A stretch of 64,000 nt of DNA from a virus. The translations under genes and the position numbers were made by a program. Each line of letters opens with the position of its first letter. Position 1 is the stretch's first letter. A model generated the notes under the pieces. The model was not told where the DNA came from. It saw only the letters and a list, made by a program, of their open reading frames with translations, and did not search any database. Of the stretch, positions 5,081-44,065 are shown piece by piece. Location: the IMG/VR virus record IMGVR_UViG_3300045988_129166. The stretch is one strand, 5' to 3'.

Positions 5081-5977
5081 ATGGAAACTACAAACAAACT
5101 GTTTTATTCAGGTACAAAATTCTTTACAGAAAATGAAGAAGATTATAGAATAACAGTTAGAATCTCTTTGGATGATGACTGCAAAAATAACATATGCGAC
5201 TGGAGCATAACAGCCGACGTTGACTGGAAAAACAAGCATGGAAAATATGAGGATTACTTAGGAGGCTGCTGCCACGATGAAGTCGTAAAACATTTTCCGG
5301 AATTGGCGAAATTCATATCGTTGCATCTTTGTAACCATTATGGTGCTCCTATGTATCCGGTAGATAATGGTATGTATCACATAAAAAATAGTGGTATGTC
5401 TGTGGCAATGGAGTATTTGCGTATATCAAAACAAGAATGCGTAGAATTATATAAAGCCTCTGAGGATAAGTTGTATTTCAAGTATCTGCTTTTCAATCTG
5501 GGGATTGTGGATAGACAGAAAAGAGAATCAGAAGAACTTATTGCGGAACTTGAAAAATTGTGTGGTAAGAAGTGGGTTAATCCATATAAGCCGGAAGAAG
5601 AAAGATTTGTTTTAACACTAACGGACGAGGAACGTTTGCTTATTGAAGAGCGCATTAAAGCTGGGTATTATTCCGCAGAAAGTATCGAAAAACGTAGGGA
5701 AGAGACTCATAAGGCAGAGATGTTGAAAAAGCGTGCTGAAATTTGTGAGCAATATGATAAGAAAATCAGACAAGCAGAAGCAGAAAAGAAGATAATGCTT
5801 TGTGTGTTTGATTATGGGTTGTCTACCGATAATGTTATATATTATCCTCACACGAACACTTTGTCTTTCAACTGGGACAGCTATGAAGAAAAAATCACAC
5901 AAGAAGAGTTTGATGATTTTGTGAATAAGGTAGACCGCTCTCAATTGCCAGAAGATATTAGGTTTGAGCTTAAATAA
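5081..5977 (+). CDS. Hypothetical protein (298 aa)
   Basis: Long ORF; no motif recognised. Confidence 0.75.
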   Translation: METTNKLFYSGTKFFTENEEDYRITVRISLDDDCKNNICDWSITADVDWKNKHGKYEDYLGGCCHDEVVKHFPELAKFISLHLCNHYGAPMYPVDNGMYHIKNSGMSVAMEYLRISKQECVELYKASEDKLYFKYLLFNLGIVDRQKRESEELIAELEKLCGKKWVNPYKPEEERFVLTLTDEERLLIEERIKAGYYSAESIEKRREETHKAEMLKKRAEICEQYDKKIRQAEAEKKIMLCVFDYGLSTDNVIYYPHTNTLSFNWDSYEEKITQEEFDDFVNKVDRSQLPEDIRFELK

Positions 5978-6290: not shown

Positions 6291-6818
6291 ATGAACAATT
6301 CAATAGTCGCTCACTTGTGGGCTCATGAACAAGAAGAATCAGCATCAGGGAGCAATTTCTTCTTTGAAGGTACAAGTATTTATTCTTATGGGCATCACTT
6401 TGAAGTCGGAAGAATAGTAAAAAACAAACAAGGGAAGAAAGCATACCTGATAAATGAAGATTATTATTCTGCTACCACGAGCAAACATCAATGCTATGTT
6501 CGTAATGCGATACCAACTTGGGCAATGGTTTTCAGTGTAAAGGAAGATGATTATTTTCCATTCTCATCTACTGATGTAGTAGGATACGAGTATAAACTTC
6601 TCTACCATGAGAAATTCTTCGAACATCTTCATATGAAGAGGCTGGTCATTGACGAAAATATTCCTTTTCCAGTAAGCACATGGGAGCGCTCATATCGGTA
6701 TAAAGGATATGGTTACAATATGTGCCGGGAGACAAAGAAAAAACTTCTACAGGCTATTAAAGGTGTAAACGTAGAGGAGGAAGATGTATCTTTGTACACT
6801 ACTGGAGGATGGGATTAA
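6291..6818 (+). CDS. Hypothetical protein (175 aa)
   Basis: ORF immediately upstream of the methyltransferase. Confidence 0.7.
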   Translation: MNNSIVAHLWAHEQEESASGSNFFFEGTSIYSYGHHFEVGRIVKNKQGKKAYLINEDYYSATTSKHQCYVRNAIPTWAMVFSVKEDDYFPFSSTDVVGYEYKLLYHEKFFEHLHMKRLVIDENIPFPVSTWERSYRYKGYGYNMCRETKKKLLQAIKGVNVEEEDVSLYTTGGWD

Positions 6819-8502: not shown

Positions 8503-9309
8503 ATGATAACATCGGTAAAAATAAAAGACAATACAAAAACTCCATTTGAATACGTTTCTAATATAGAAGCATTTGAAAATGGCAGAGAATTTATTTTCAA
8601 GCCAGGAGTGAATGTAATTATAGGTAAAAACGGTAGTGGAAAATCAACCTTGCTTAACATCATATCAATGTATGCGTTATGCGAGAAATCCATGTGCTCT
8701 GAAATGCCGATCGAAGCGCTGGACTTTCCACCCATATTTGATGATAATGACAAGGTTCTTGATGGGATTGACATATCATCTGATTATGAAGGGAAAGTAT
8801 TCCGTTTATTGCCATCAACGGAAACGAATCGAAATGACGTATTGAAAAACATCAGCAATTTCGATTTGTATGTGAATAATATTCGAAGATCTTATGGAGA
8901 GAAAGTGGTGTTATCATTGGAATCACTTTTTAATTTAATGTTCGGCCAAAAGGATTATACATTTCCAATACAAGATCTTGTAGAATACAAGAAAAAAACA
9001 AATACGTTTTGGATTAAAAGAATTGATAATCTGTTGAAGTATTACAAAAGAAACCGTATAACATTAACAAAAAGCAGTTTTGAATACACGGTTCTCATGG
9101 ATGAGCCGGACAGGAATCTTGACATTGACAACATAATGCAAATTTATAATGTATTATCATTCCATAAACCACAAACACAAATTATAGCCATAGTACACAA
9201 TCCGGCATTGATTTACAAATTAAGCAAATTGGATTGTGTGAATTTCATAGAGATGACAGAAGGATATCTAAAGGATGTTGTCAATTTCATAAGTGAAACA
9301 AATAAATGA
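8503..9309 (+). CDS. Minimal ABC-type ATPase (SMC/Rad50/RecF-like, AAA_21/23-like)
   Basis: Walker A GKNGSGKSTLLN; signature-like SYGEKVVLSL; Walker B/D-loop VLMDEPDRNLD; H-loop IIAIVHN. Confidence 0.8.
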   Translation: MITSVKIKDNTKTPFEYVSNIEAFENGREFIFKPGVNVIIGKNGSGKSTLLNIISMYALCEKSMCSEMPIEALDFPPIFDDNDKVLDGIDISSDYEGKVFRLLPSTETNRNDVLKNISNFDLYVNNIRRSYGEKVVLSLESLFNLMFGQKDYTFPIQDLVEYKKKTNTFWIKRIDNLLKYYKRNRITLTKSSFEYTVLMDEPDRNLDIDNIMQIYNVLSFHKPQTQIIAIVHNPALIYKLSKLDCVNFIEMTEGYLKDVVNFISETNK

Positions 9310-9315
9310 AAGAGA

Positions 9316-9660
9316 ATGAGAAAAGAACTGAAAATAATAGGATCAAGAGATCGGCACGTATTTACAGCGACATTCATTCGTTTTGGATTCAGGGATGGGT
9401 ATAAAGGGCCTGTAAAGACAATACTTTTACAAGACGTGTTACTCGATGGTAAAGTAGTAACAGACCATTTGTGGTTTGATTTGACAAAAGGATTCAAAAA
9501 CGCTGATTTATTACCGGGAGATGTGGTTGAGTTCTGCGCAAGGGTTAGCGTTTACGAGAAAGGATATAAAGGATATAGGAATAACGTATTCGGTAGACCG
9601 ATAGAAAAGGATTATCGATTGTCAAGACCAACAAAGATTAAAAAGATTGGGGATAAATAA
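9316..9660 (+). CDS. Hypothetical protein (114 aa)
   Basis: ORF 7 nt downstream of the ATPase gene. Confidence 0.65.
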   Translation: MRKELKIIGSRDRHVFTATFIRFGFRDGYKGPVKTILLQDVLLDGKVVTDHLWFDLTKGFKNADLLPGDVVEFCARVSVYEKGYKGYRNNVFGRPIEKDYRLSRPTKIKKIGDK

Positions 9661-9733
9661 ATATAATTTAACAAAATTTAGGCGTGGTAGCATGTTAAAC
9701 TTTTATATTTGTACTTAATTAATTAAAGAAAAA

Positions 9734-10048
9734 ATGAACTGGAAGAAATTTAAAGAGGAAAAACCTCCAGAGGGAGAAGAAGTGTTGGCTTACCATCCAA
9801 GTTGGATAGATGAAGATTTCAACCCAAGAGGTATAAGAATAGGGTTTTGGAATGGAGGGGACGATTTTAAATCAGCCCATTGGTGGGATTATCAAGATTG
9901 TTATATCACAATCTCTCATTGTGATTGTGATGATAATTCTCTTTTCAGTGATAGAATAAAAAACAGCATAGAGCCAGAGTTATGGATATCACTTGATGTT
10001 ATTACAAATTACTTACCTAACATAAAACAAAATCACTTATCACAATGA
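9734..10048 (+). CDS. DUF551-like phage protein
   Basis: N-terminal W..F.EEKPPEGEEVLAY resembles the DUF551 signature W...LPEEGEEVLVY (from memory). Confidence 0.6.
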   Translation: MNWKKFKEEKPPEGEEVLAYHPSWIDEDFNPRGIRIGFWNGGDDFKSAHWWDYQDCYITISHCDCDDNSLFSDRIKNSIEPELWISLDVITNYLPNIKQNHLSQ

Positions 10049-10143
10049 GCTATTTTATGATTATTTAACCAACAAAATCACCATACTTTAGAAGGTGGAT
10101 GAATTGGGTTGATTAATTTTGAATCAAAATTACAGATAAAAAA

Positions 10144-11022
10144 ATGATTTCATACAAATACAACATCTATCATTCAAAGAAAACGAAGTATCTAGACAAG
10201 ATGCTTCGTGAATGTTGTTTTGTATGGAATCATGCTTTAGCTCTACAACGTAGGTATTACAAACTGTTTGGGAAATATATATCAATTGGTAAGATGAAGA
10301 AACATTTTACCAAAAGAATTAAAAGAAATCTTCTTCATTCTCAAACAACACAAGAAATACTTGAGCGTCTTGATGAATCTTATAATCGTTTCTTTAAGAA
10401 GTTGGCTAAACGACCTCCTAAGTTTAAATCACCGGAGAAATTCAATTCTTTTGTATTCAAACAAGGTGGTTTTACCCTGAATGGTAATTGTTTAACAATT
10501 AACAAAGGAAACAAACGATTTAGATTCTCATACAGTAGACCTTATGAAGGTAATGTTAAGCAAATAAGAATAGTTAGAGAAACCTGTTCACGTTTTAGTT
10601 TGATTATAATTACAGATCATAATCATTCAAACTCTTATAGAAAGACACATGATGGTGCATCTATAGGATTGGATTTTGGTCTGAAAACTTATCTAACTAA
10701 AAGCGATGGTAGCAAAATTGGATCTCCTCTATTCTTCAAACAATATCAAAACAAGATTAGAAAACTAAACAAACGGCTTTCTAATGCAAAGAAAGGATCT
10801 AACAATAGAAGAAGGAGACTGTTTGAACTCCAACAAAAGTATCGTAAAATAAACGATCTTCGATCAGACTTTCAATGGAAATTAGCTCATGATTTGTGTA
10901 AACAATATGATTATATTTTTATTGAAGATCTAAACATTGAAGGGATGAAACGTTTGTGGGGAAAGAAAGTTTCCGATCTTAGTCACTCTTCTGGCGTTAG
11001 TTATAAAAGGCATCTTATCTAA
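10144..11022 (+). CDS. tnpB: TnpB-like protein (IS200/IS605 OrfB family), C-terminally truncated: zinc finger and RuvC-III absent
   Basis: RuvC-I GLDFGLKTYLT (Asp present); RuvC-II YIFIEDLNIEGMKR (Glu present); ORF stops ~100 aa before a canonical TnpB C-terminus; no tnpA nearby. Confidence 0.8.
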   Translation: MISYKYNIYHSKKTKYLDKMLRECCFVWNHALALQRRYYKLFGKYISIGKMKKHFTKRIKRNLLHSQTTQEILERLDESYNRFFKKLAKRPPKFKSPEKFNSFVFKQGGFTLNGNCLTINKGNKRFRFSYSRPYEGNVKQIRIVRETCSRFSLIIITDHNHSNSYRKTHDGASIGLDFGLKTYLTKSDGSKIGSPLFFKQYQNKIRKLNKRLSNAKKGSNNRRRRLFELQQKYRKINDLRSDFQWKLAHDLCKQYDYIFIEDLNIEGMKRLWGKKVSDLSHSSGVSYKRHLI

Positions 11023-11121
11023 TAATGAAATGATGATGATGGACGTTTTGCAGTGGTGTTCTGAAAGATTTAAAAATAGTATAGAGAAAGGAAAGAAATC
11101 AACTAATTAAATATTAATACA

Positions 11122-11592
11122 ATGAATCGCTGGTTTGAAATTACGGTAAAAGCCGAGATTGATAATATCGAGAACGGCAAAAAAAAGAAAGTAACTGAAA
11201 AGTATTTGGTAGATGCCTTATCTTATACAGAGGCAGAATCAAGATCTTTAGAGATTTTCAAGGATTTATTTCAAGTGTTCGACATTGTTAAAATAAATCC
11301 TATTAAAGTGTCGGAAATCTTCTTCAACGGAGAAGCTGAGTACTGGTATAAGTGTAAGGTAAATTACATTACACTGGATGAAAAGAAAGGTAAAGAAAAG
11401 AAAACGCCATGCTATATGTATGTCCAGGCCGGCAATCCGAAAGACGCTGAGGCTGTGTTAACTAAAGGTATGCAGGGCACGTTAGGAGACTGGAATTGCG
11501 AAGCTATTGCTGAAACGAAGATCATTGACGTATTCAAATACGATCTTCAGAAGGGAGCTGAAAAATTAGGCGAGAAGAAGAGTGAAGAGTAA
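11122..11592 (+). CDS. Hypothetical protein (156 aa)
   Basis: ORF in array. Confidence 0.7.
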   Translation: MNRWFEITVKAEIDNIENGKKKKVTEKYLVDALSYTEAESRSLEIFKDLFQVFDIVKINPIKVSEIFFNGEAEYWYKCKVNYITLDEKKGKEKKTPCYMYVQAGNPKDAEAVLTKGMQGTLGDWNCEAIAETKIIDVFKYDLQKGAEKLGEKKSEE

Positions 11593-11821
11593 GGCTGATG
11601 TAGTTTCCAACATAGCGCTTGTTGTGGCGATAATATCATTGCTTTCAGCAGGCGCTTTCCTTCTGATAGTGATTAAGACAGACGAGGTATCTAAATTATT
11701 AATGAACGTACCTTATCTACTGGCTTCAGCGGGATTGTTCTTTTCAATAATATCATTATTATTCGAATGGAAAGCAAGGAAAAGAAGCTATACGTCTGCG
11801 AACGATGTGGACGAAAAGTGA
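11582..11821 (+). CDS. Small membrane protein (two predicted TM helices)
   Basis: 79 aa; hydrophobic stretches IALVVAIISLLSAGAFLLIVI and LLASAGLFFSIISLLF. Confidence 0.5.
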   Translation: MKSKADVVSNIALVVAIISLLSAGAFLLIVIKTDEVSKLLMNVPYLLASAGLFFSIISLLFEWKARKRSYTSANDVDEK

Positions 11822-12291
11822 TGATAAGAAGTCATGGCTTATGCCAGGCTTGCAGGAGCAAAGAGTTGACTCCGAAGAAAAAAAACAGAATTACATCCAT
11901 TAAAAACAGCAGCAAGAAGAAAAAGTTAGAGAACCCGGATTTATCCGGGTTTTTTCGTCTTATGTTGGAGGAGTTGAGTACTATTCGAATGTCTATGACC
12001 GGTAAGGCTATTCATTTTCCTACAGTATGTAACATCTGTCACATACTTCCGAAAAGGATATATAAGTCGGTTGCTACTTGCAGAGATAATATAGTTTTCC
12101 TACATGAATCGGAGCATACGGTATTCGACATGTATCTTGACCGGATGGAATTTGATAAACTTGAAACAGAATTTCCTTTTGTGTGGAAGTATGCGGTAAA
12201 GAAGGTACTGGATATGGAAAGCAGGGGAATGATTAAAGAAAGAGGTAGATTAATTATTGAAATAATTGACAGATATGAGAAAACTTTATAA
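11767..12291 (+). CDS. Zinc-ribbon protein with HNH-like CxxCH...HxxxH arrangement (possible nuclease)
   Basis: N-terminal CERCG...CQAC; later CNICH ... N ... HESEH. Confidence 0.6.
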   Translation: MESKEKKLYVCERCGRKVMIRSHGLCQACRSKELTPKKKNRITSIKNSSKKKKLENPDLSGFFRLMLEELSTIRMSMTGKAIHFPTVCNICHILPKRIYKSVATCRDNIVFLHESEHTVFDMYLDRMEFDKLETEFPFVWKYAVKKVLDMESRGMIKERGRLIIEIIDRYEKTL

Positions 12292-12451
12292 AATAAGAAT
12301 AGAAGCTGACAATGAAACTATCTTTTATGCTCACATACAGAGAGAGAGTTATGGTAAGGATATAGCTATCGCAGTGAAAGATAGAGATAAAGATGAAGTG
12401 GAAACAGTGTTACATTGTATTAAAGAAGAATTGATTAGAGGAAGATCATGA
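12266..12451 (+). CDS. Hypothetical small protein
   Basis: 61-aa ORF; ATGA overlap downstream. Confidence 0.45.
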   Translation: MTDMRKLYKIRIEADNETIFYAHIQRESYGKDIAIAVKDRDKDEVETVLHCIKEELIRGRS

Positions 12452-43651: not shown

Positions 43652-44065
43652 TCATTTACCTGCTTTAACTTCAGACGCCTGGGCTGTTGTTGTCGGAACA
43701 CAACAATCCATTAATCTTAACACGCCACGAACTTTATTGAAGTACAGAAGGCGTTCTGTGCCATTTACCATAGCAGCACCCGTGACAGCTACGTTAATAG
43801 GGTTCACGACATTCACTCCCGTAACAGGGCAACAGGTGTCGGCTCCTACTGTTGAAACTGTGCTGTTTGCCGGGACCGCAATCTGTACCGGTAGAGCACT
43901 TCCGGCTGTGGGGACTACTTGCCTTATCTTAAGAAGGATAAGACCCTCACACGGAAGGGCGATCCAGGCCCGTGGGTTAATACCGAAGACTGTATTTGTC
44001 GTACTGACAATAACATTCTTCGTAACCATCTCATACAACGATCCTATTTTAGAAACACAAGCCAT
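43652..44065 (-). CDS. Hypothetical protein with paired-Cys (CC) motifs
   Basis: 137 aa; DTCCPVTG and LMDCCVPT. Confidence 0.5.
   Translation of the reverse strand: MACVSKIGSLYEMVTKNVIVSTTNTVFGINPRAWIALPCEGLILLKIRQVVPTAGSALPVQIAVPANSTVSTVGADTCCPVTGVNVVNPINVAVTGAAMVNGTERLLYFNKVRGVLRLMDCCVPTTTAQASEVKAGK

Follow-up and report, generated by a model that had tools for sequence, protein, structure and literature searches.

The 64,000-nucleotide stretch of viral DNA that we analyzed (here referred to as the window) carries a 292-amino-acid (aa) open reading frame (ORF) at positions 10144..11022 (+), described earlier as a C-terminally truncated TnpB-like gene with no tnpA beside it. The question that this locus raises is whether the gene is a decaying IS200/IS605 insertion or a domesticated protein of the TldR kind, the two readings offered in the original prediction. 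In the second of these, the product would be a nuclease-dead, RNA-guided repressor of a host or phage promoter, with its guide encoded at or beyond the 3' end of the gene (10900..11121). [quoted passage not shown] They have no identifiable transposon ends (Wiegand et al., bioRxiv 10.1101/2023.11.30.569447), their guide RNA (gRNA) scaffold lies within 500 bp and is found by covariance models made from related TnpB RNAs, and they form conserved clades with conserved gene partners (10.1101/2023.11.30.569447). The evidence presented below indicates that the window gene is very probably a decaying, deletion-truncated remnant of a tnpB-only IS and not a domesticated regulator.

The ORF encodes the N-terminal part of a TnpB

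The 292-aa ORF matched the NCBIfam profile guided_TnpB (NF040570) at 147 bits (cutoff, 100; E = 8.8e-43), and this match spanned only profile positions 1-318 of 389, in line with the original description of a TnpB that retains RuvC-I and RuvC-II and ends before the zinc finger and RuvC-III. Pfam OrfB_IS605 was matched at 68 bits (cutoff, 30.5; E = 8e-19) and HTH_OrfB_IS605 weakly, while the Pfam search returned no zinc-ribbon/TNB domain (PF07282) in the ORF. The motifs GLDFGLK, with the RuvC-I Asp, and IFIEDLN, with the RuvC-II Glu, are both kept. RuvC-III and the ZnF are missing, and because the RuvC D-E-D triad is thereby incomplete, the leftover protein should be unable to cut DNA and is probably the product of a pseudogene. 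The TnpB frame ends after residue 283 of the window ORF, and what remains is open for 292 codons, with its start and left end (LE) intact.

We found no second TnpB fragment or detached 3' half in the 64-kb window using tblastn and blastn-short: TnpB residues 287-379 were not found anywhere in the window by tblastn, and the tnpB 3' DNA and the right end (RE) were not found anywhere in it by blastn-short. As had been predicted, no TnpA lies nearby; among the neighboring genes, which encode a Dam methylase, an AAA/SMC-like ATPase, two proteins of unknown function, a DUF4494 protein, a NinG-like protein, and a replication factor, there was no transposase of any type, Y1 and serine enzymes included. 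A tRNA scan of the window was empty, and a sigma-70 promoter scan gave promoter-like sites at or below the shuffle expectation. A terminator scan flagged a hairpin with an 11-bp stem (ACGAAGTATCTAGACAAGATGCTTCGT) at window positions 10183-10209 (+), inside the 5' part of tnpB, which may be either a structure of the IS near its LE or a chance hairpin.

The window gene belongs to an abundant tnpB-only IS family

A scan of IMG/VR identified 292 loci encoding relatives of the window TnpB, and we based the family comparison on the best 80 of these, at 88-95% aa identity. An intact 379-aa TnpB ORF was present in 72 of these best 80. Non-intact copies among them had ORFs of 27, 139, 201, 304, or 327 aa, along with one copy cut by a contig end and one with a C-terminal frameshift fusion. 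About 10% of the best 80 copies are otherwise pseudogenised, indicating that decay is routine in this IS family. An intact member carries PF07282 (Cas12f1-like TNB, zinc ribbon) at residues 281-347, followed by the RuvC-III motif NDRDVLAARNI, and alignment to such intact copies confirmed that the zinc-ribbon/TNB domain and RuvC-III are the parts missing from the window ORF. ISDra2 TnpB (PDB 8EXA / 8H1J) is the reference RNA-guided IS200/IS605 nuclease, and the full-length members align to both structures over residues 11-352 (E = 6e-29), with the same domain order, the D-E-D RuvC triad, and a CxC...CxxC zinc finger. They differ from ISDra2 in that their element contains no tnpA partner, and the window copy differs further in being a truncated pseudogene.

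To set the ends of the element, we counted pairwise BLAST end-points over copies in many contexts. This end-point counting defined a shared block that begins 91 nt upstream of the ATG and closes 17 nt downstream of the stop codon, and the full element is ~1,243 bp long, consisting of an 85-nt LE, the 379-aa TnpB, and an RE reaching 17 nt past the stop codon. At the left junction, N-TTAT is followed directly by the first bases of the element (GATTATTTAACC...), and at the right junction the element closes with ...GGGAGTATGTCAA. The flanks among the best 80 copies comprised 21 distinct left and at least 38 distinct right sequences, and in 20 distinct insertion sites the 4 bases that precede the element were TTAT without exception. 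In one relative (L005, IMGVR_UViG_3300045988_113203), a gene that the IS has not interrupted provides an empty site, in which CCAGTATTTAT runs directly into GTTAAAAGAT; in another relative (L027), the same site is occupied, with the IS lying between CCAGTATTTAT and GTTAAAAGAT. Comparison of the empty with the occupied site indicates insertion 3' of TTAT/TTTAT without duplication, which is the IS200/IS605 mode.

Because the element contains only tnpB, it is non-autonomous, and since no tnpA was seen in it, a trans-acting TnpA (of the host or the phage) or some other mobilization route is implied. Two IS loci each were found on contigs 119245 and 111202, and some related phage genomes carry two copies. 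The ~1.24-kb IS is abundant and apparently active, and it occupies dozens of sites in epsilon crAss-like gut phages. TnpB-family "transposase" genes have already been reported in some Epsilonunovirus genomes (PMC11054128), and we consider the IS family surrounding the window copy to be of moderate annotation interest and not new in kind.

The window copy retains the left end and is fused to a phage gene remnant

The window region matches csAssE-Sib (OR575929.1, 151 kb), an epsilon crAss-like phage, and the window itself comes from a related phage of that group. Window positions 9809-10063 correspond to positions 1-254 of the csAssE-Sib locus (L001; 96%) and window positions 10991-12300 to L001 4001-5325 (87%), and the empty site in csAssE-Sib reads GCTATTTTAT followed directly by ATTAATGGG. 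csAssE-Sib has a full 379-aa homolog of its own (WOZ57285.1; 79% aa identity), which sits elsewhere in its genome, within the structural module, and DNA homology between the window tnpB and the csAssE-Sib tnpB extends from 10140 to 10992 and then stops. Alignment of the window with csAssE-Sib, L005, and the IMG/VR copies resolved the locus into the following parts.

10054..10058 (+): TTTAT target motif (TTAT core), the presumed TAM, in phage DNA directly 5' of the LE
10059..10143 (+): LE of the IS, 85 nt, intact; GATTATTTAACCAACAAAA..., common to most fetched copies
10144..10992 (+): tnpB codons 1-283, covering the HTH/WED/REC region, the RuvC-I Asp, and the RuvC-II Glu; 88-95% aa identity to intact TnpBs
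10993..11022 (+): out-of-frame ORF tail GVSYKRHLI and stop codon, read from the phage gene remnant (alignment against L005 and L001)
10991..11110 (+): remnant of an 86-aa phage gene, codons 48-86 and stop codon, homologous to WOZ57362.1; includes the deletion junction
11122..11592 (+): DUF4494 gene (PF14902; E = 6.8e-41), the first intact phage gene downstream, outside the element

Homology to most fetched copies, with their 21 distinct left flanks, starts at window positions 10053-10055, and the DNA homology of every fetched copy (best 80 of 292) to the window ends at 10992. The LE and its TTTAT flank are present at 10054-10143; the RE (...GGGAGTATGTCAA) was not found in the window. Without an RE, the remnant should no longer be mobilizable. 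From 10991/10992 onward, the window DNA is 87% identical to L001 and 98% identical to L005, and 10991..11110 translates to LALVIKGILSNNEMMMMDVLQWCSERFKNSIEKGKKSTN followed by a stop codon, which is the C terminus of WOZ57362.1 and of the L005 ORF that ends at 6800. In csAssE-Sib, WOZ57362.1 adjoins the DUF4494 gene, just upstream of it, and its residues 48-86 match the window remnant; the DUF4494 gene is conserved in both csAssE-Sib and L005. The tnpB frame and the frame of the 86-aa phage gene are one base apart. The stretch 11023..11121 had been described as non-coding, and it does lack a long ORF, yet it is not an anonymous spacer: it consists mostly of the 3' remnant of the 86-aa gene (to 11110), a gene that is intact in relatives, plus an 11-nt spacer before the next gene.

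A 1,833-bp deletion separates the window copy from an intact copy at the same site

An intact element lies at exactly the window's left junction in L005. Window positions 9697-10992 align with L005 3553-4849 at 95% identity, contiguously across the left flank and the junction, and homology resumes at window position 10992 with L005 6682 (98%). The point at which the match breaks and the point at which it resumes define a 1,833-bp deletion in the window. Relative to L005, the missing DNA comprises the end of tnpB (codons 284-379) and the RE, then three small phage genes that encode 82, 67, and 221 aa in L005, and finally codons 1-47 of the 86-aa gene. The window junction reads ...CACTCTTCT joined to GGCGTTAG..., and the corresponding donor sequences in L005 are ...CATTCTTCT joined to TTTATTGA... 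and ...CATCAATT joined to GGCGTTAA.... Microhomology at the junction amounts to 1-2 nt, which would be consistent with deletion by illegitimate recombination.

These data strongly support the decaying IS200/IS605 insertion of the original prediction, in the form of the left part of an abundant IS that differs from an intact copy at the identical site by a 1,833-bp deletion; the proposed comparison of related phages thus yielded a same-site sister element, with TTAT 5' of the insertion and no duplication. We also considered a frameshift or nonsense pseudogene, and rejected it, as no downstream tnpB sequence remains. The original prediction had named a frameshift or an early stop, as judged against an intact neighbour copy, as the lesion that would refute its reading. 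The lesion here is a deletion instead, but it likewise leaves a pseudogene.

Window positions 10059..10992 represent the left ~75% of a non-autonomous, tnpB-only element of the IS200/IS605 family. We infer that the element first inserted 3' of TTTAT, just downstream of a 104-aa gene (9734..10048), and that a single later deletion brought tnpB codon 283 up against codon 48 of the 86-aa phage gene. The zinc-ribbon/TNB domain and the RuvC-III Asp would have been lost in this event, together with the ωRNA scaffold in its entirety, the RE, and small, dispensable phage genes amounting to ~1.5 kb.

The truncated allele is recent and is found in independent assemblies

IS copies are repeated in these genomes and can confuse assemblers, and the fusion might in principle be a chimeric join of a tnpB copy and the phage backbone. 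However, the same junction was present in independent ENA and Logan assemblies from at least two runs (ERR321208 and ERR209201) and two projects, and the junction and its flanks were identical across them (100% over 2.7-6 kb), leaving an assembly artefact with a negligible probability. The exact 292-aa protein occurs on 11 public contigs, indicating that the carrier lineage is viable and circulating, and the three retrievable ones show 100% identity to the window across 2.7-6 kb.

We compared the window's 283 codons to those of 64 distinct intact copies and found 3 private changes, a number too small for dN/dS; two are synonymous and one is non-synonymous (T232K). A degenerate pattern for the junction allele gave 0 matches in IMG/VR or JGI metagenome contigs. 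Taken together, the 3 private changes and the absence of the junction from IMG/VR and JGI indicate that the truncation is recent and restricted to one circulating lineage.

The ωRNA-like scaffold of the family lies in the deleted DNA

The intact copies bear the marks of an RNA that overlaps the 3' end of tnpB. Synonymous diversity was 0.04-0.05 in codons 341-379, versus 0.08-0.25 elsewhere, and amino acid diversity rises in those same codons, where synonymous diversity falls; this combination is as expected for an overlapping RNA constraint. The last ~127 nt of the intact copies (L005 5031-5157 and equivalents) fold into an ωRNA-like 3' structure of three conserved helices, with compensatory changes at 131:169, 133:167, 135:165, 147:158, 148:157, and 149:156, as well as in the terminal hairpin of csAssE-Sib. 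The full element carries an ωRNA-like scaffold that overlaps its last ~40 tnpB codons. In intact copies, this scaffold lies ~180-308 nt downstream of the position of the window's breakpoint, and it is wholly deleted in the window. Set against the intact TnpBs of the family, such as that of L005, the window copy has the same LE and TTAT-adjacent insertion, shares its insertion site with L005, and is 88-95% identical over residues 1-283, and it differs in lacking residues 284-379, the ωRNA-like 3' structure, and the RE.

We built a covariance model (R1) from the 3' 127 nt of the IS family. When applied to eight held-out copies, pseudogenised ones included, R1 recovered all of them at 141-156 bits. 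Over the 64-kb window, with filters off, it found nothing beyond chance and nothing near the gene or within 500 bp; its best hit scored 13.6 bits (E ~0.06) at 43875-43980 (+), in an unrelated region with a GC content of 0.55, and is most likely due to chance. An independent contig with the same allele (L083) also gave no R1 hit. Window positions 10900-11121 had a folding z score of +1.74, and 193 of the 200 shuffles folded as well or better. Rfam gave no match for the whole window at gathering thresholds and none for the locus together with an intact copy at E <= 1; Rfam 15 appears to hold no family that matches the ωRNA of this IS. The scaffold and guide predicted in 11023..11121, and the omega-RNA-like structure sought across 10900..11121, did not materialize: the former stretch shares homology with the 3' end of a protein-coding phage gene, and it is not a guide RNA scaffold. 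The remnant would thus have no guide RNA of its own.

These results bear directly on the TldR reading. The window ORF is TnpB derived and phage borne and lacks exactly the C-terminal ZnF/RuvC parts that many TldRs lose, but truncation is the only feature that it shares with them. The locus keeps its LE, at the same junction as the intact IS in L005, and has no adjacent scaffold, no separate clade, and no conserved partners. R1, which detects held-out copies with ease, finds no scaffold within 500 bp or elsewhere in the window, the region from which intact copies would transcribe it is entirely deleted, and the downstream ~100 nt that might have replaced it are a phage gene remnant in a segment that folds worse than its shuffles and matches no Rfam family. 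Nor does the protein show the divergence of a lineage of its own, with three private codon changes and a junction seen in neither IMG/VR nor the JGI metagenomes. A TldR with a cis-encoded guide is refuted by the covariance model and homology results, and we regard a TldR-like repressor at this locus as extremely unlikely.

A residual role for the fragment is improbable

The truncated protein might also act with RNAs made elsewhere. In this scenario, an expressed N-terminal fragment (WED/REC and part of RuvC) would bind the ωRNAs of intact copies at other loci of the phage or host and serve as a nuclease-dead DNA binder or as a dominant-negative inhibitor of the TnpBs of the family. The open frame with its intact start and LE would permit this, related phage genomes often carry two IS copies, and the lineage circulates in several samples. 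However, the 64 kb visible, out of a genome of ~150 kb, yielded neither an intact copy nor an ωRNA. The break lies right where the TNB/ZnF begins and takes away the C-terminal part of the RuvC fold, which makes folding of the fragment doubtful, and the allele, restricted to one lineage, bears no sign of selection over its 3 private changes. We therefore consider residual activity of this kind quite improbable. A more specific version, in which the 283-residue fragment is an incipient TldR that is expressed from the LE, loads the ωRNAs of intact sister copies at other places in the phage or host genome, and binds empty donor sites without cutting them, strikes us as very improbable; were it true, the fragment could modulate homing of the IS family or phage gene expression. 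We infer instead that the leftover protein has no function.

As a deletion-truncated IS remnant, the window gene itself matters little, being a textbook case of how an IS decays through deletion, here in a variable and dispensable part of a crAss-like phage genome. It is useful as a negative control for TldR calls. Before a C-terminally truncated, tnpA-less TnpB is labeled a TldR, one should rule out that an intact sister element occupies that site, that a transposon end has been kept, and that the gRNA scaffold is missing.

The insertion region is hypervariable among related phages

We compared the interval between the 104-aa gene and the DUF4494 gene in the window (10049-11121), L001 (254-4001), L005 (5158-6682), L008, L009/L010, and L027/L030. 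The interval is hypervariable, holding from 0 to ~12 small genes depending on the phage, and it is a hot spot for the IS, which has inserted there independently at least three times, once in inverted orientation (L009/L010). Deletions beside the element were seen in other copies as well. In L030, a deletion starts exactly at the RE boundary (L030 5157), with 12 nt beside the RE missing, and in L008, a deletion also starts at the RE boundary (5156-5250), with ~730 bp missing. The frameshifted TnpB of L008 (415 aa) consequently runs into this 86-aa gene as well, at a point only 27 nt away from where the window is joined. That two independent deletions end in the 86-aa gene suggests that its 3' end, or signals for the start of DUF4494 expression, must be kept. 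On the other side of the insertion site, the 114-aa gene at window positions 9316-9660 is missing from L005, in which window positions 9272-9697 have no counterpart, a small indel between close relatives.
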